Assembly (NCBI GenBank): GCA_963697895.1
Contig: OY969100.1
Coordinates: forward strand, 384,001 to 448,000
From: an uncultured Methanomicrobiales archaeon
GTDB taxonomy: Archaea > Halobacteriota > Methanomicrobia > Methanomicrobiales > Methanospirillaceae
Length of the DNA stretch: 64,000 nucleotides
Reading direction: 5' to 3'
Made by a program: the position numbers and the translations under genes. The number at the start of each line of letters is the position of its first letter. The stretch's first letter is position 1. Below the pieces are notes generated by a model. That model worked only from the letters and a program-made list of their open reading frames with translations. It did no database searches and had not been told where the DNA came from. This document shows, piece by piece, positions 8,748-11,991 of this stretch.

Positions 8748-10043
8748 ATGCGCAAAGCCTCCATCCTCCTCGAGAATGCCACGCTCCCCGACGGCAGGCG
8801 TGCTGATCTTTCTCTTGCCGGGGGAATCGTTTCCCACGTGGGTGCCCCCGTCCATGCAGAACGGGTTATTGACTGCTCCCGCTTTATCGTGATGCCTGCA
8901 GCGACCGATATGCACGTGCATATGCGTTCCGGTGTCCAGCGTGAGAAAGAAGACTGGGAGAGCGGAAGCAGGAGCGCCCTTGCGGGGGGAGTAACAGTGG
9001 TCGTCGATCAGCCGAATACTATTCCGCCACTTAATACACAGGAAGCAATAATAAGTCGGTTAGCCGATGCACGGTCCCATAGCTGGTGTCATTTTGCGGT
9101 GAATGGAGGTATTGGTCAGGGGGTGGACCTCCTTAAACTGTGGCAAAGCGGGGTAACGGCATTTGGGGAGATATTTATCGGCCCCTCCAGCTATGGGAGC
9201 GCTGTTCCGCATGAGATACTCTGCAAAGCCTTCGGAGATCTGAAGGAGCTCGGGGCTATGGCGACGATTCATGCCGAGGAAGTATGTTTCATCCGGGCCG
9301 GAACTCTGGAAGAGCACCATCGATCGCGTCCTCCGGCAGGGGAGGAACGGGCGGTCAAAGCGGTACAGGACGATAACCGGGTAAAAATTTCACTACATTT
9401 CTGCCACCTGAGCACCGCCGGGGCGGTTCAGGCGGCGGGAGATGCATCGGTCGAGGTAACACCCCACCATCTCTTCCTCGCGCTGGAACAATTTGACCCG
9501 AAGGACACACATGGGAAGGTAAACCCTCCGATCAGACCGGAAAAGGAGCGGCGACGTCTCTGGGAGTTATGGGATCGGATCGATGTGATCGCATCAGATC
9601 ATGCGCCGCATTCCTCTGATGACAAAACGGAATCTTTCGAAGATTCACCATCCGGTGTCCCCGGCGTGGAGACGATGATGCCACTTCTTATGGCCCAGGT
9701 CCTGAACAAACGCTGCTCGCGTGTTTCTGTAATAGAAAAGACCTGTTATCGTCCTTCCCAGCTTCTTGGTATCCCGGCCGCGGGGTTTACTCCTGGGTGC
9801 AGGGCCGATTTTGCTCTCTATCCCCGGCAATGCCGACGGATAGACCCCGATATGCTTCACAGCCGCGCGGGATGGACCCCATTCGCCGGGCATGCGGCCG
9901 CCTTTCCTGTCTTCGTGATCATGGGGGGTGATCTGGTATTCGAGGAGGGAGAGTTCCTTCCCGGGCAACCCCGGTGGTATCATGGAAAGGGATATATAAA
10001 TCACGAGGTGATGGATGATGGTGCCGACAAAGCGCATCCATAG
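8748..10043 (+). CDS. pyrC: Dihydroorotase (amidohydrolase family)
   Basis: DMHVHMR, GGVTVVVDQPNT, EVTPHHL, KVNPPIR, ASDHAPH, GWTPFAG. Confidence 0.88.
   Translation: MRKASILLENATLPDGRRADLSLAGGIVSHVGAPVHAERVIDCSRFIVMPAATDMHVHMRSGVQREKEDWESGSRSALAGGVTVVVDQPNTIPPLNTQEAIISRLADARSHSWCHFAVNGGIGQGVDLLKLWQSGVTAFGEIFIGPSSYGSAVPHEILCKAFGDLKELGAMATIHAEEVCFIRAGTLEEHHRSRPPAGEERAVKAVQDDNRVKISLHFCHLSTAGAVQAAGDASVEVTPHHLFLALEQFDPKDTHGKVNPPIRPEKERRRLWELWDRIDVIASDHAPHSSDDKTESFEDSPSGVPGVETMMPLLMAQVLNKRCSRVSVIEKTCYRPSQLLGIPAAGFTPGCRADFALYPRQCRRIDPDMLHSRAGWTPFAGHAAAFPVFVIMGGDLVFEEGEFLPGQPRWYHGKGYINHEVMDDGADKAHP
9984..10000 (+). promoter_or_regulatory. BRE/TATA promoter embedded in the pyrC 3' end, probably driving the downstream ncRNA
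   Basis: GGAAAGGG followed by ATATATAAA, about 20 nt upstream of the structured GGTGCC start at 10020. Confidence 0.6.
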
Positions 10044-10194
10044 GTCCCCGGGCGATCTCATGGCGATTGCCTTGAAATGAACCACGGGACAACCCGGTTG
10101 CGCGACAGGCACCGCCCGGCCGAGGGTTAAAAAACGGGTGAAGGACGGCAGCACGCCACTGATGATCCCTGTTTGTTAATGCCGGGCGACATCC
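10020..10194 (+). ncRNA. Two-hairpin H/ACA pseudouridylation guide RNA
   Basis: Hairpin 2: CGCCCGGC(10113-20)/GCCGGGCG(10181-88), pocket GAGGGTTA/GTTA, upper stem AAACGGG/CCTGTTT, K-turn-like TGA...TGATGA, ACA at 10189. Hairpin 1: GCGCA/TGCGC stem, ACA at 10105, apical CGA...ATGA K-loop-like motif, enclosed by GGTGCC/GGCACC. Confidence 0.75.
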
Positions 10195-10207
10195 TTCTTC
10201 CATTACC

Positions 10208-10540
10208 ATGAATCCGGATATATCCCCTGCAATTGCAATAGAAGAAAAGGGTGTCGTCGTCACGATAGAGGCCACTACCGGCTGCCGGGAAGATCAATTT
10301 CCCTCCGGATATAACAGCTGGAGAAAGTCTATCGGATGTCATACGACAGCACATCCTGCTGAAGGCAGAGCAAACCGGGCGATCGTTCGGCTGATATCAG
10401 AAGTCTGTTCGGTTTCCCGATCTCAAGTCCGGATCATATCGGGTACCACTTCTTCTCTCAAGCGAGTCCGCATTACCGGCAGATCAGCCGAAGAGATCTC
10501 CAAAATACTCACAGATCTGCTGAACGATCATACCGCTTAA
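10208..10540 (+). CDS. DUF167 / UPF0235 (YggU-like) protein
   Basis: GYNSWR, PAEGRAN, IISGTTSSLK motifs. Confidence 0.85.
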   Translation: MNPDISPAIAIEEKGVVVTIEATTGCREDQFPSGYNSWRKSIGCHTTAHPAEGRANRAIVRLISEVCSVSRSQVRIISGTTSSLKRVRITGRSAEEISKILTDLLNDHTA

Positions 10541-10722
10541 ATTTAACGTAGGAGGCACTTTCCTGAAAGGAATATATGGTACATAAATCATAAAATTTAT
10601 ACAATAAAATATAAATAAAAATATTTTTCCTGAACCAATAGTTTAAATAATACGCCATGCGATTATTCGTCACCTATGATCGCGTGTCATCATATTTGCA
10701 CGAAGCATGGGGGTGCATTTCA

Positions 10723-11991
10723 ATGTATTCACCAGATACCACCAAGTACCTTATTCATCTTCACCTCGAGGCCGAGGGGGTGGTCGAGAAACCCGATGTC
10801 ATAGGGGCTATTTTTGGCCAGACAGAAGGGTTACTCGGCGAAGACCTCGATCTGCGGGATCTGCAGCGGACTGGACGCGTGGGAAGAATCGACGTCCAGA
10901 TCAGCAGTAAAAAAGGGGAGACCAAGGGAGAAATACTCATCTCATCCTCACTTGATCGTGCGGAGACGGCAATCCTTGCAGCATCGCTGGAGACGATCGA
11001 CCGGGTCGGTCCCTGCGTCGCGCACGTCTCCGTGGATTCGATAGAAGATATTCGGGTAAACAAACGAAAGAAGATCATAAACCGGGCAAAGGAGCTGCTC
11101 CTCGATTCCTTCGAGGAGGGCACCATCGACTCCTATGAGCTCCTCGATGAAGTCAGGGAGAGCATCCGGATCGAGAAGATCAGTACCATCGGTGATGATA
11201 AAGTTCCCGCGGGGCCGAACGTACTCGAATCTGACGCGATCATCGTCGTGGAAGGCCGGGCCGATGTGATAAATCTTCTCAAATTCGGCATAAAAAACGC
11301 AGTAGCTGTTGAGGGAACCCACATCTCCCGAACCATCATCGATCTCTGCGAAAAAAAGACCGCGACCGCATTCCTTGACGGGGACCGGGGGGGAGAGCTT
11401 ATACTTCGCGAACTTCTTCAGGTGGCTGATATCGATTATGTCGCGTATTCTCCCCGGGGGAAGAGTGTCGAGGACATGACCAGAAAGGAGATCATCAAGG
11501 CACTCAGAAATAAAATACCGGTAGAGTATGTAAAAGAGCAGTATCTTGAGGAGTCACCCGGCGAAGAGCCGCCAAAAGAGCAAAAACCGGGAAAGACGCC
11601 AGTCTCCCGGTCTCCGCAGGAAGCAGCAGAATTGCCAGTCGAACAGATGGATAAAAAATTCAAGCCGAAATTCCCCATTCGACGGGCAAAGGAGCCAGCC
11701 CATAAGGCAGCACCGGTAACCCTGAAAGACCACTTGGATGCGGTCAAGGGTCATCATATCGCACGTTTTCTTTCATCCGATCTGGTAATCATCAGAGAGA
11801 TAAAAACGGAAGATCTGGATCGAGTACTTGACGAGCTGAACGGAGATGTCGCAGGGGTGGTCACCGATGATGCGGTAACTCAGAAACTGCTGGACCATAT
11901 GGTGGGCAAGGGGCTCGAGTACGTCGCGGCACGTGAATTCAAGGGTATAATCAAGCGCCCGCTCACGATCAGACTGATGAAGATCGCGTGA
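10723..11991 (+). CDS. dnaG: Archaeal DnaG-type primase / exosome-associated protein
   Basis: TKYLI...[21 protein letters not shown]; [14 protein letters not shown] and DGDRGG; likely start MYSPDTTKY at 10723. Confidence 0.95.

Follow-up and report, generated by a model that had tools for sequence, protein, structure and literature searches.

The window, by which we mean the whole stretch of 64,000 nt analysed here, carries on its forward strand a dihydroorotase-like open reading frame (pyrC) and a gene of the DUF167 (YggU) family, and between them a conserved RNA element that is present as a single copy in its own genome (Table 1). The match of the upstream frame to the family NF002668 stops at residue 403–404 of 431, and the last 24 nt of the frame overlap the RNA, the pyrC stop codon being the UAG of the AUAGG pocket segment. 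A preliminary description of this DNA, made from the sequence alone, had pointed to a TATA word inside pyrC, and ATATATAAA is indeed found there. Of 30 relatives, 20 have their most A/T-rich octamer centred 23–27 nt upstream of the conserved RNA start, and 25 have a TATA-like word within 31 nt upstream of the RNA. The same DNA carries the final codons of pyrC, a promoter-like word and the start of the RNA gene. The T/C tract reported behind the RNA is also there, with 11 pyrimidines in the first 12 nt after ACA box 2.

Table 1. Features of the pyrC–DUF167 interval, numbered by position in the window
Feature	Position	Strand	Remarks
Upstream dihydroorotase-like ORF (pyrC)	8748..10043	+	NCBIfam NF002668, 377.7 bits, below the cut-off of 452
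TATA-like promoter word ATATATAAA	9992..10000	+	within the 3′ end of the pyrC frame; ~25 nt before the RNA
Predicted H/ACA sRNA, ~172 nt	10020..10191	+	ends inferred from conservation boundaries
P0 helix, 5′ strand	10021..10025	+	pairs with 10108–10112
Hairpin 1 lower stem, 5′ strand	10032..10039	+	pairs with 10096–10103; U10037.U10098 mismatch in own genome
Hairpin 1 pocket, 5′ strand AUAGGUC	10040..10046	+	each position identical in 36–38 of 38
Hairpin 1 upper stem, 5′ strand	10047..10053	+	CCCG with 10085–88, GG with 10082–83; 10084 bulged
Hairpin 1 K-turn and apical stem-loop	10054..10080	+	sheared G10054.A10080 and A10055.G10079
Hairpin 1 pocket, 3′ strand ACAACCC	10089..10095	+	identical in 37–38 of 38
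ACA box 1	10105..10107	+	1 nt past lower stem 1; invariant, 38 of 38
P0 helix, 3′ strand (linker between hairpins, after ACA box 1)	10108..10112	+	pairs with 10021–10025
Hairpin 2 lower stem, 5′ strand	10114..10122	+	pairs with 10179–10187; top two pairs unformed in own genome
Hairpin 2 pocket, 5′ strand	10122..10131	+	GAGGGUUA pairs with UGACCCUC of own H69
Hairpin 2 upper stem, 5′ strand	10132..10139	+	AAAC with 10171–74, GGG with 10167–69; U10170 bulged; U10139.U10166
Hairpin 2 K-turn and apical stem-loop	10140..10165	+	sheared G10140.A10165 and A10141.G10164
Hairpin 2 pocket, 3′ strand GUUA	10175..10178	+	pairs with UAAC 5′ of own 23S U1959
ACA box 2, predicted RNA 3′ end region	10189..10191	+	invariant, 38 of 38; conservation ends directly after
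Downstream DUF167 (YggU family) gene	10208..10540	+	Pfam PF02594, 68.6 bits; start 16 nt past ACA box 2

When searched by blastn with positions 10000–10210, 36 of 40 relatives, representing six families, gave one strong match each (E ≤ 2.7e-8, 73–84% identity), and the four relatives that gave none are genomes that are 62–93% complete. The match ends at about 10021 and about 10191, and the edges of conservation at 10020 and 10191 are sharp in 30 aligned relatives. In a sample of the phylum searched with two covariance models (R1 and R2), the RNA was found in 81 of 151 genomes, including all 18 of the order-level genomes. The preliminary description had proposed an H/ACA-type guide RNA of two hairpins that carry K-turns and ACA boxes, and had named covariation as a means to check it. 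In an alignment of 38 order-level sequences that was fitted to the structure model, 92.4% of the cells are paired, and changes on both sides were counted for 29 of 45 pairs; these values were reached by none of 500 shuffles, and controls in which the structure was slid along the alignment gave at most 15 pairs. A plain MAFFT alignment of 30 sequences gave 90.1% paired cells and compensatory changes in 20 of 42 pairs, again with 0/500 shuffles, and compensatory changes were seen at 36 of 42 pairs among 25 phylum-level sequences (0/500). Two hairpins have the support of covariation, and each consists of lower stem, pocket, upper stem and K-turn, with an invariant ACA. Among the 38 order-level sequences, both ACA boxes are invariant, the GA and UGA words of the K-turns are invariant or nearly so, and the K-turn C-stems covary in both hairpins. 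The minimum free energy fold of the single sequence was not relied on; it closes the pocket of hairpin 2 (GUUAA/UUAAU) and misfolds hairpin 1.

Within hairpin 1, seven of the eight lower-stem pairs have changed on both sides in the order (38 sequences), and seven of eight again in the distant set. The upper stem is invariant in the order, and its register is backed by compensatory changes at five of six pairs in distant homologues. The K-turn comprises a 3-nt bulge (10076–78), a C-stem (10056–57/10074–75) and an apical stem (10062–64/10069–71); its GA is present in 38/38 and its UGA in 37–38/38 sequences, while the C-stem is 97.3% paired with both pairs compensatory. A first model of this hairpin (upper stem GUCCC/GGGAC, pocket UCCAUAG/AACCCGGU) was found without an rRNA target, and gave way to the present one when the lower stem of 8 bp and the CCCG/YGGG register emerged. 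The alternative CCGGG/CCCGG pairing mentioned in the preliminary description can be drawn in the organism's own sequence but is not kept in distant homologues.

For hairpin 2, compensatory changes were counted at six of nine lower-stem pairs (93% of cells paired) and at six of seven upper-stem pairs (38 sequences each). Its K-turn has the same parts, namely a 3-nt bulge (10161–63), a C-stem (10142–43/10159–60) and an apical stem (10147–49/10155–57), and A10141, U10163 and G10164 are each found in 38/38 sequences and A10165 in 36/38. The C-stem is 100% paired, and its pair 10142–10160 occurs as GC (19), AU (15), UA (2), CG (1) and UG (1). This covarying C-stem superseded a pair 10142–10163 that had been part of model R1.

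These features define the class. Both hairpins consist of a lower stem, an internal-loop pocket and an upper stem, and in both the pocket strands are complementary to the organism's own rRNA on the two sides of an unpaired UN, as is characteristic of H/ACA guides. According to the rules set out in PMC2377435, an ANA (usually ACA) stands directly 3′ of the lower stem and 14–15 nt from the target U; the distance is 14 both for own U1959 and for own U2619, the sites considered below, and 16 for an alternative site in the A-loop. The upper stems, with no more than one bulged nucleotide each, and the "GA stem" (hairpin 2, 10 layers; hairpin 1, 9 layers) are likewise consistent with the published rules as given there and in PMC4652768. 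The K-turn of each hairpin, a predicted L7Ae site, has (G)YGA in its ascending strand and RUGA(U) in its descending one, together with a bulge of 3 nt and a C-stem of 2 bp that covaries. The genome also encodes proteins of the H/ACA machinery, with matches above the respective cut-offs for Cbf5 (TruB_N, 54 bits, in a frame of 345 aa), Nop10 (77 bits) and L7Ae (85 bits), together with a weak match for Gar1 (23.7 bits against a cut-off of 29.3). Considering all this, the element on the forward strand at 10020–10191 is very probably a box H/ACA guide sRNA, namely the Methanomicrobiales orthologue of sR-h45 and of motifs 2–3 of Afu4/Pf7.

Rfam, the other check suggested at the outset, has no model that matches the RNA. 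A search of the whole window at gathering thresholds gave no match, as did a search at E ≤ 10 within 9900–10300, including HgcG (RF00064), the relative from Pyrococcus, and RF00064 run on the whole genome gave only two matches elsewhere, both of them noise (8.8 and 8.1 bits; cut-off 77). A box C/D sRNA was rejected as well. In such RNAs, as described in the part of PMC2584109 that treats them, C (RUGAUGA) and D (CUGA) boxes are situated at the RNA ends and the guide ends 5 nt upstream of D. Here, the UGAUGA/CUGA-like words at 10159–10166 fall within the K-turn of hairpin 2, and the UGAUG words at 10009–10021 are unconserved in relatives.

The position of the element also allows it to be read as a cis-acting mRNA element, belonging to the 3′ end of pyrC or to the leader of DUF167, with no guide function. 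The gene order pyrC–RNA–DUF167 is kept in 30 of 30 order-level loci, the 24-nt overlap with pyrC is present in 13 of these 30, and 16 nt separate the end of the RNA from the DUF167 start codon. Yet the same RNA adjoins neither pyrC nor DUF167 in any of the six haloarchaeal loci examined, and most of the distant homologues examined have neither neighbour (pyrC in 2 of 12, DUF167 in 0 of 12). A leader role would, moreover, leave the invariant ACA boxes, the K-turns and the rRNA-complementary pockets unexplained. This makes a purely cis-acting element very improbable, and the guide RNA is retained as the preferred interpretation.

Targets were sought in the organism's own 16S and 23S rRNAs with shuffled pockets as controls, and E. 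coli equivalents were taken from an alignment to an annotated E. coli 23S. Since unconstrained pocket boundaries gave several equally high chance matches in 16S, the search was restricted to boundaries that the structure fixes. The target sites discussed here show no differences among 25 order-level genomes, nor in 23 distant genomes as far as these cover them.

The best match of the hairpin-2 pocket in the organism's own rRNAs is U1959 (E. coli U1915) in helix 69, with 4+8 bp, equalled by 4 of 2000 shuffled pockets. The preliminary description had proposed that hairpin 2 leaves U1915 unpaired 14 nt from the ACA, and the own 23S agrees, G10175 being 14 nt from ACA box 2. The H69 sequence given there fared less well: the own helix reads UAAC-UA-UGACCCUC instead of ending in UAACCCUC, although the complementarity holds, with one G.U pair in the 8-bp arm. 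From this complementarity, hairpin 2 is predicted to pair with the organism's own helix 69 and to leave U1915 unpaired. The guide word GUUA is well kept (GUU in 38/38, A in 33/38). Two points count against this assignment. The 3′ arm is short (4 bp, of which three are A-U) and its duplex energy is about 0 kcal/mol. The register of the 5′ arm varies among relatives; an uninterrupted run of at least five pairs to the 3′ side of H69 is kept in 35/38. Since a search for the longest 5′ arm picks different registers in different relatives, the site is best given as U1915 alone or U1915 together with U1917 (own U1961), the latter possibly being left unpaired and exposed by the same hairpin.

For hairpin 1, the canonical register leads to own U2619, the equivalent of E. 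coli U2586 in the peptidyl-transferase region. AACCC can pair with GGGUU 5′ of this uridine and GGUC with GACC 3′ of it (5+4 Watson–Crick bp, matched by 15 of 2000 shuffled pockets), and A10091, the first paired guide nucleotide, lies 14 nt from ACA box 1. Across the whole phylum set it is the guide core G(G)UC + AACC(C) that persists, and two homologues with CAUGGUC instead of AUAGGUC would pair with the U2586 site over a greater length. Counted against this register is that it has no need of A10089, C10090 and the AUA at 10040–42, which are nonetheless kept in 36–38 of 38 sequences. Within a model that we regard as very probable as a whole, the core of hairpin 1 would guide the modification of E. 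coli U2586, the site experimentally shown for stem-loop 1 (SL1) of sR-h45.

Exactly the positions left over by the U2586 register (A10040–A10042, A10089 and C10090) are used by a second register, in which the pocket would guide own U2588 (E. coli U2555) in the A-loop, instead of or besides U2586. Here ACAACC pairs with GGUUGU 5′ and AUAGGU with GCCUAU 3′ of U2588, with UC unpaired. These 6+6 bp, one of them G.U, are the best match of that register in the own rRNAs and were equalled by none of 2000 shuffled pockets; the full 6+6 is found in 34/38 sequences, and the arm energies (−6.1 and −5.2 kcal/mol) are lower than those at the U2586 site (−5.1 and −3.8 kcal/mol). The same ambiguity is known from motif 2 of Afu4. 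In PMC2377435 and PMC4652768, L2601 is the pseudouridine originally assigned to it, credited to Tang et al., and lies 31 nt upstream of the alternative L2632, a spacing equal to that between own U2588 and U2619. However, the A-loop register has an ACA distance of 16 instead of 14–15, and Muller et al. held the equivalent Afu4 assignment to be inconsistent with their rules, as stated in PMC2377435; on the other side, PMC7075261 describes atypical spacings of up to 17 nt that can be functional. Furthermore, the A-loop complementarity is absent in haloarchaeal and some other homologues in which the U2586 core is retained, and the two sites resemble each other (GGUU.. and G.CC..), so that double complementarity is more likely to arise by chance. 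Guidance to the A-loop, as an alternative or additional target, appears less likely than not.

Slightly less likely still is the specific proposal of a dual-register pocket, which at distance 14 would direct modification to U2586 in the peptidyl-transferase ring and, shifted by two guide nucleotides to distance 16, to U2555 in the A-loop (E. coli numbering). If true, the lack of variation at all 14 pocket nucleotides across Methanomicrobiales would be explained, and the conflicting assignments of Afu4 motif 2 (L2601 versus L2632) would be reconciled.

The A-loop had already been named as a target in the preliminary description, with a different pocket made of GGCG (10051–54) and (A)CAACC and with E. 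coli U2554 or U2555 as the target. While the A-loop around U2555 is complementary to the pocket in the register given above, the pocket as drawn is wrong. Its 5+5 bp with own GGUUG[UU]CGCC exist, but GGCG reads GGUG in most relatives, and its bases belong to the upper stem and the K-turn: G10051 pairs with Y10083 and G10052 with C10082 (U-A in one genome), both with support from covariation, and G10054 is part of the invariant sheared G10054.A10080. No upper stem would adjoin such a pocket. That exact model is hardly credible, and the U2554 register falls with the GGCG strand.

Compared with known RNAs, the element resembles most closely sR-h45 of Haloferax, a likeness that is based on the text of the paper and on other named haloarchaeal loci. 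The order of the two hairpins is shared: in both RNAs, the first is directed to the U of GGGUU[UA]GAC (Hv 2605; E. coli 2586), which is the third U of GGGUUUAG, and the second to helix 69 (Hv 1940/1942, E. coli 1915/1917). Both use the guide words AACCC + GUC and GUUA + GAGGG, have K-turns with sheared G.A pairs, and carry an ACA or ANA about 14–15 nt from the target. For Haloferax, guidance of the U2586 equivalent by SL1 was shown experimentally; as described in PMC7075261, of three U's the first two are paired with two A's of SL1, UA is unpaired, the arms have 3 and 5 bp, and C56/G57 are unpaired. The haloarchaeal hairpin 1 of the loci read here (..UAGUC../CGAACCC) agrees with this description. 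Among the 80 matches listed for the exact pattern of the second hairpin (HP2, 22 specified bases), 38 are haloarchaeal, 15 belong to Methanomicrobiales and 27 are from GC-rich bacteria. Applied to 15 of these 80 loci, model R1 recognized 4/4 from Methanomicrobiales at full length and 7/7 from haloarchaea, whereas none of the four bacterial loci was recognized.

The two forms also differ. The linker between the hairpins has about 6 nt here and is paired with the 5′ leader (P0), whereas the haloarchaeal spacer is long (56 nt in H. volcanii, ~28–85 nt in the loci read). The pocket AUAGGUC/ACAACCC, as opposed to ..UAGUC/CGAACCC in haloarchaea, adds the complementarity to the A-loop, and the genomic context is unlike that of sR-h45. 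Stems II and III of Pf7 correspond to the haloarchaeal HP1 and HP2 according to PMC2584109, and are adjacent in Pf7, as they are here. Afu4 (Archaeoglobus fulgidus), Pf7 and Pab40 form the Rfam family HgcG (RF00064), and motif 3 guides the H69 uridine, as predicted here for hairpin 2, a relation that rests on the papers' text and on the link through haloarchaea. They have three motifs, whereas the RNA described here has two; given that about 25 nt separate the TATA word from the first helix downstream of it, there is no space for a third motif on the 5′ side. Two adjacent hairpins, with neither a long spacer nor a third motif, are a distinct architectural variant of the sR-h45/Afu4–Pf7 lineage. 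In eukaryotes, yeast snR191 and human U19 guide the same conserved pair of helix-69 pseudouridines, as stated in the Discussion of PMC7075261. Being H/ACA snoRNAs that have an H box but lack a K-turn, they are like the present RNA in function only.

From sequence, structure, covariation, complementarity, homology and the protein genes, we infer the following course of transcription, RNP assembly and modification. The RNA would probably be transcribed from its own TATA promoter at 9992–10000. Each hairpin would then bind one set of proteins, L7Ae at the K-turn and Cbf5–Nop10–Gar1 at the lower stem and ACA, and would present one 23S uridine to Cbf5 for conversion to pseudouridine. In hairpin 2, pairing of GUUA with UAAC and of GAGGG(UUA) with (UGA)CCCUC of helix 69 would expose own U1959, and in some relatives a shorter 5′ arm may expose U1961 too, in a "UNUN" arrangement similar to that of SL2 of sR-h45. 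Hairpin 1 would expose own U2619 between the AACCC/GGGUU and GGUC/GACC duplexes, in precisely the same way as SL1 of sR-h45 is described to do.

None of the papers listed by one literature search on this group of methanogens mentions H/ACA RNAs, and a widespread and unannotated guide RNA is added to the group here. The covariance models R1 and R2 could seed an Rfam family that unites the haloarchaeal and methanogen forms. The RNA predicts pseudouridines in helix 69 and in the peptidyl-transferase ring of Methanomicrobiales, as in haloarchaea. Its frozen pocket, complementary to both U2586 and the A-loop, provides a natural test of the site guided by the Afu4 motif and of the limits on H/ACA spacing.

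Finally, the additional GGTGCC/GGCACC helix noticed around hairpin 1 in the preliminary description was located at 10020–25/10108–13, and covariation supports it as an outer helix, P0. In the order, 95–97% of its cells are paired and two of five pairs are compensatory; in distant families it is found in about 10–12 of 25 sequences, with a different sequence and three of four pairs compensatory. P0 directly adjoins ACA box 1, which was counted against the guide model with respect to compatibility with Cbf5 binding. By clamping the 5′ leader to the inter-hairpin linker, P0 could help to position the RNP for dual-register guiding.

The locus between pyrC and the DUF167 gene carries, as judged by comparison with its relatives, a real, conserved and previously unannotated box H/ACA guide RNA (window 10020-10191, + strand); it belongs to a known family, of which it is a variant with adjacent hairpins. 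A preliminary description had proposed such an RNA, and the features it listed within 9984-10200 are all present; covariation, the ACA boxes and the K-turns bear out its H/ACA nature. Genes for a Cbf5-type TruB_N protein, Nop10 and L7Ae are present in the genome, together with a weak match to Gar1. Expression, RNA ends, RNP assembly and modifications are what we infer from these observations.

By blastn, 10000-10210 gave a single strong match in each of 36 out of 40 relatives (73-84% identity, 6 families); the four genomes without a match are 62-93% complete. The aligned similarity starts at about 10021 and ends right after 10191. A covariance model of the RNA built from 30 relatives (R1) found one full-length match in each of the 18 Methanomicrobiales genomes of a phylum sample and matches in 81 of its 151 genomes overall; in one GC-rich group, the two hairpins were matched separately. 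An exact hairpin-2 pattern, searched over species genomes, returned at least 38 haloarchaeal, at least 15 Methanomicrobiales and at least 27 bacterial titles among the 80 matches listed. Applied to 15 such loci, R1 recovered 4/4 from Methanomicrobiales at full length (165-186 bits), 7/7 from haloarchaea and 0/4 from bacteria.

Features of the guide RNA and the surrounding genes, in window coordinates
Feature	Position	Strand	Basis
Upstream ORF, dihydroorotase-like (pyrC)	8748..10043	+	NCBIfam NF002668; Pfam Amidohydro_1
TATA-like word ATATATAAA	9992-10000	+	sequence reading
GGTGCC, able to pair with GGCACC	10020-25; 10108-13	+	sequence reading
Outer helix P0	10021-25/10108-12	+	RNAalifold + manual reading
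Hairpin 1 lower stem, 8 bp	10032-39/10096-103	+	RNAalifold + manual reading
Hairpin 1 K-turn, sheared G.A pairs	10054.10080 and 10055.10079		
ACA boxes (ACA1, ACA2)	10105-07 and 10189-91	+	sequence reading
Hairpin 2 lower stem, up to 9 bp	10114-22/10179-87	+	RNAalifold + manual reading
Hairpin 2 K-turn, sheared G.A pairs	10140.10165 and 10141.10164		
Pyrimidine-rich stretch	directly 3' of second ACA	+	sequence reading
Downstream ORF, DUF167/YggU-family protein	10208..10540	+	family search
Archaeal DnaG primase, next gene downstream	10657-11991		NCBIfam NF003108, 539 bits

RNAalifold and manual reading concur on P0, both lower stems and the placement of the ACA boxes, each lower stem being followed by one nucleotide and then ACA. 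In 38 order-level sequences, 92.4% of cells are paired and 29/45 pairs are compensatory, a result equalled by 0/500 shuffles; this alignment was fitted to the structure model, and slid controls reached at most 15 pairs. An unfitted MAFFT alignment gave 90.1% paired cells and 20/42 compensatory pairs. The single-sequence fold of the + strand is somewhat more stable than its shuffles (z -2.97, 0/200 as stable), but that of the - strand comes close (z -2.55, 2/200), and folding energy alone therefore decides little; the RNA is assigned to the + strand by its abundant G.U pairs together with both ACA boxes and the TATA word.

The upper stem of hairpin 1, CCCG (10047-50) with YGGG (10085-88), is invariant within the order, and its register is settled by distant homologues, in which 5/6 pairs show two-sided changes. 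The pocket is thus AUAGGUC (10040-46) plus ACAACCC (10089-95). In the usual K-turn nomenclature, each hairpin has tandem sheared G.A pairs, a descending strand with a 3-nt bulge, and a covarying 2-bp C-stem (in hairpin 2, 10142-10160: GC 19, AU 15, UA 2, CG 1, UG 1). Both K-turns are of box C/D type, (G)YGA ascending and RUGA(U) descending, by the consensus in PMC2584109.

P0, which joins the 5' leader to the inter-hairpin linker and encloses hairpin 1 and ACA1, had been noticed as an extra helix; it covaries within the order and recurs with different sequence in about 10-12/25 distant homologues. It would bring the RNA 5' end beside the base of hairpin 2 and place ACA1 in an internal loop. 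The 6-nt strand linking P0 to hairpin 1 holds a conserved GA.A word. In two relatives (loci L031, L032) 5 nt are inserted between ACA1, which they directly follow, and the 3' strand of P0, so that the ACA1-P0 spacing is not strictly fixed. By eye, six loci of one distant family group (L085, L091, L092, L257, L258, L260) show a GGGG run in the 5' leader that looks like the 3' strand of hairpin 2's lower stem; in that group the run could compete with this strand for pairing to CCCC(C), the 5' strand of the stem.

Both pockets, with boundaries fixed by the structure and 2000 shuffled pockets as control, have complementary sites in the 23S rRNA of the organism, whose 23S and 16S genes are each single-copy. 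Hairpin 2 pairs at own U1959, UAAC[UA]UGACCCUC, with 4+8 bp including one G.U (shuffles as good 4/2000, ACA distance 14). Hairpin 1 pairs from A10091 at own U2619, GGGUU[UA]GACC, with 5+4 Watson-Crick bp (15/2000, distance 14), and from A10089 at own U2588, GGUUGU[UC]GCCUAU, with 6+6 bp (0/2000, distance 16). In the annotated E. coli 23S gene (2902 nt), U1959, U2619 and U2588 align to 1913, 2584 and 2553. With an offset of +2, given by the positions of pseudouridines 1911/1915/1917 and of Um2552/G2553, they are U1915, U2586 and U2555 in standard numbering; the offset agrees at both regions.

The helix 69 (H69) target proposed earlier for hairpin 2 holds: the predicted target is U1915, with or without U1917. 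The 5' arm here can reach 8 bp with only UA unpaired, and U1915 alone would therefore be exposed. Most relatives have a shorter or shifted arm that leaves 3-5 target nucleotides unpaired, resembling the UNUN mode of Haloferax, in which both pseudouridines are made. The target sites are identical in 25 order-level genomes and in the distant genomes examined, except for G/A just 3' of the second H69 uridine (4/23). The four 23S loci with A instead of G there, adjoining E. coli 1917 (L231, L232, L234, L237), show no matching change in their hairpin-2 guides, which suggests that the guide leaves this position unpaired. In one further genome (G005), the sole 23S match (locus L059) is 75% identical to the query versus 90-97% in its relatives, and it departs from them even at target sites that are invariant elsewhere; the contig may be foreign to the assembly.

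For hairpin 1, U2586 is the main predicted target, and the pocket core that survives across all homologues, G(G)UC + AACC(C), is its guide. The A-loop target of the preliminary description (U2554 or U2555) had been drawn with GGCG + CAACC, a pocket that is rejected because GGCG belongs to the upper stem and the K-turn. As an additional or alternative target of the true pocket, the A-loop (own U2588, U2555) appears rather unlikely. Its pairing, a strong second complementarity, uses exactly the nucleotides idle in the U2586 register, kept in 36-38/38 sequences, with the full 6+6 bp in 34/38, but the spacing to ACA is 16, haloarchaea and some of the other homologues have lost the complementarity while keeping the U2586 core, and two homologues moved towards better U2586 pairing. 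The same ambiguity is in print for Afu4 motif 2: the assignment of A. fulgidus L2601 is credited to Tang et al., while Muller et al. hold that their spacing rules favour L2632, 31 nt downstream (PMC2377435), and Toffano-Nioche et al. give L2601 again, citing Tang for it (PMC4652768). A distance of 31 nt also separates own U2588 from own U2619.

Because the U2586 core survives across homologues, the RNA is filed as the Methanomicrobiales orthologue of Haloferax volcanii sR-h45 and of Afu4/Pf7 motifs 2-3, the latter compared by description. As described in PMC7075261, the sR-h45 5' stem-loop directs pseudouridine 2605 (spacing n+15) with arms of 3 and 5 bp; the first two of three consecutive U's pair with two pocket A's, UA is unpaired, and unpaired C56 and G57 lead the 3' strand. 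The 3' stem-loop directs pseudouridines 1940 and 1942 in helix 69, with UNUN unpaired. The arrangement here matches exactly that described for sR-h45, and haloarchaeal hairpin 1 (..UAGUC../CGAACCC) fits the published description of its 5' stem-loop, SL1. Grosjean et al. predicted the haloarchaeal hairpins, identified them as the counterparts of Pyrococcus Pf7 stems II and III, and noted a long inter-hairpin spacer in halobacteria versus adjacency in Thermococcales (PMC2584109). HgcG, given as the Rfam model for Pab40/Pf7 in PMC4652768, detected the RNA neither at 9900-10300 nor as a genome-wide match.

The upstream ORF matches NF002668 with 377.7 bits, below the model cut-off of 452. Its frame crosses the TATA word and then 24 nt of the RNA (10020-10043), ending in a UAG within the invariant AUAGG pocket word. 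This 24-nt overlap occurs in 13/30 relatives; elsewhere the frame ends 0-109 nt upstream of the RNA, save two loci where it extends 144-159 nt into it. Since the dihydroorotase family match stops at residue 403-404 of 431, the overlapping tail may simply be tolerated and not under selection. The promoter word inside pyrC was correctly placed: a GGTTATATA-like word lies upstream at constant distance in aligned relatives, and in 20/30 sequences the octamer richest in A/T has its centre 23-27 nt upstream of the first conserved helix, the spacing of archaeal TATA boxes to start sites; the RNA would probably be transcribed from this promoter. UGAUG-type box C-like words directly upstream of the RNA (10008-10021) are not conserved in relatives and are probably coincidental.

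Linkage to DUF167 was not found at the 6 haloarchaeal and 12 distant homologue loci examined, and the order pyrC-RNA-DUF167 is kept at 30/30 order-level and 4/4 named Methanomicrobiales loci. With its start only 16 nt past ACA2 (10192-10210), DUF167 has no room for its own promoter, and its transcription may depend on read-through from that of the sRNA or of pyrC.
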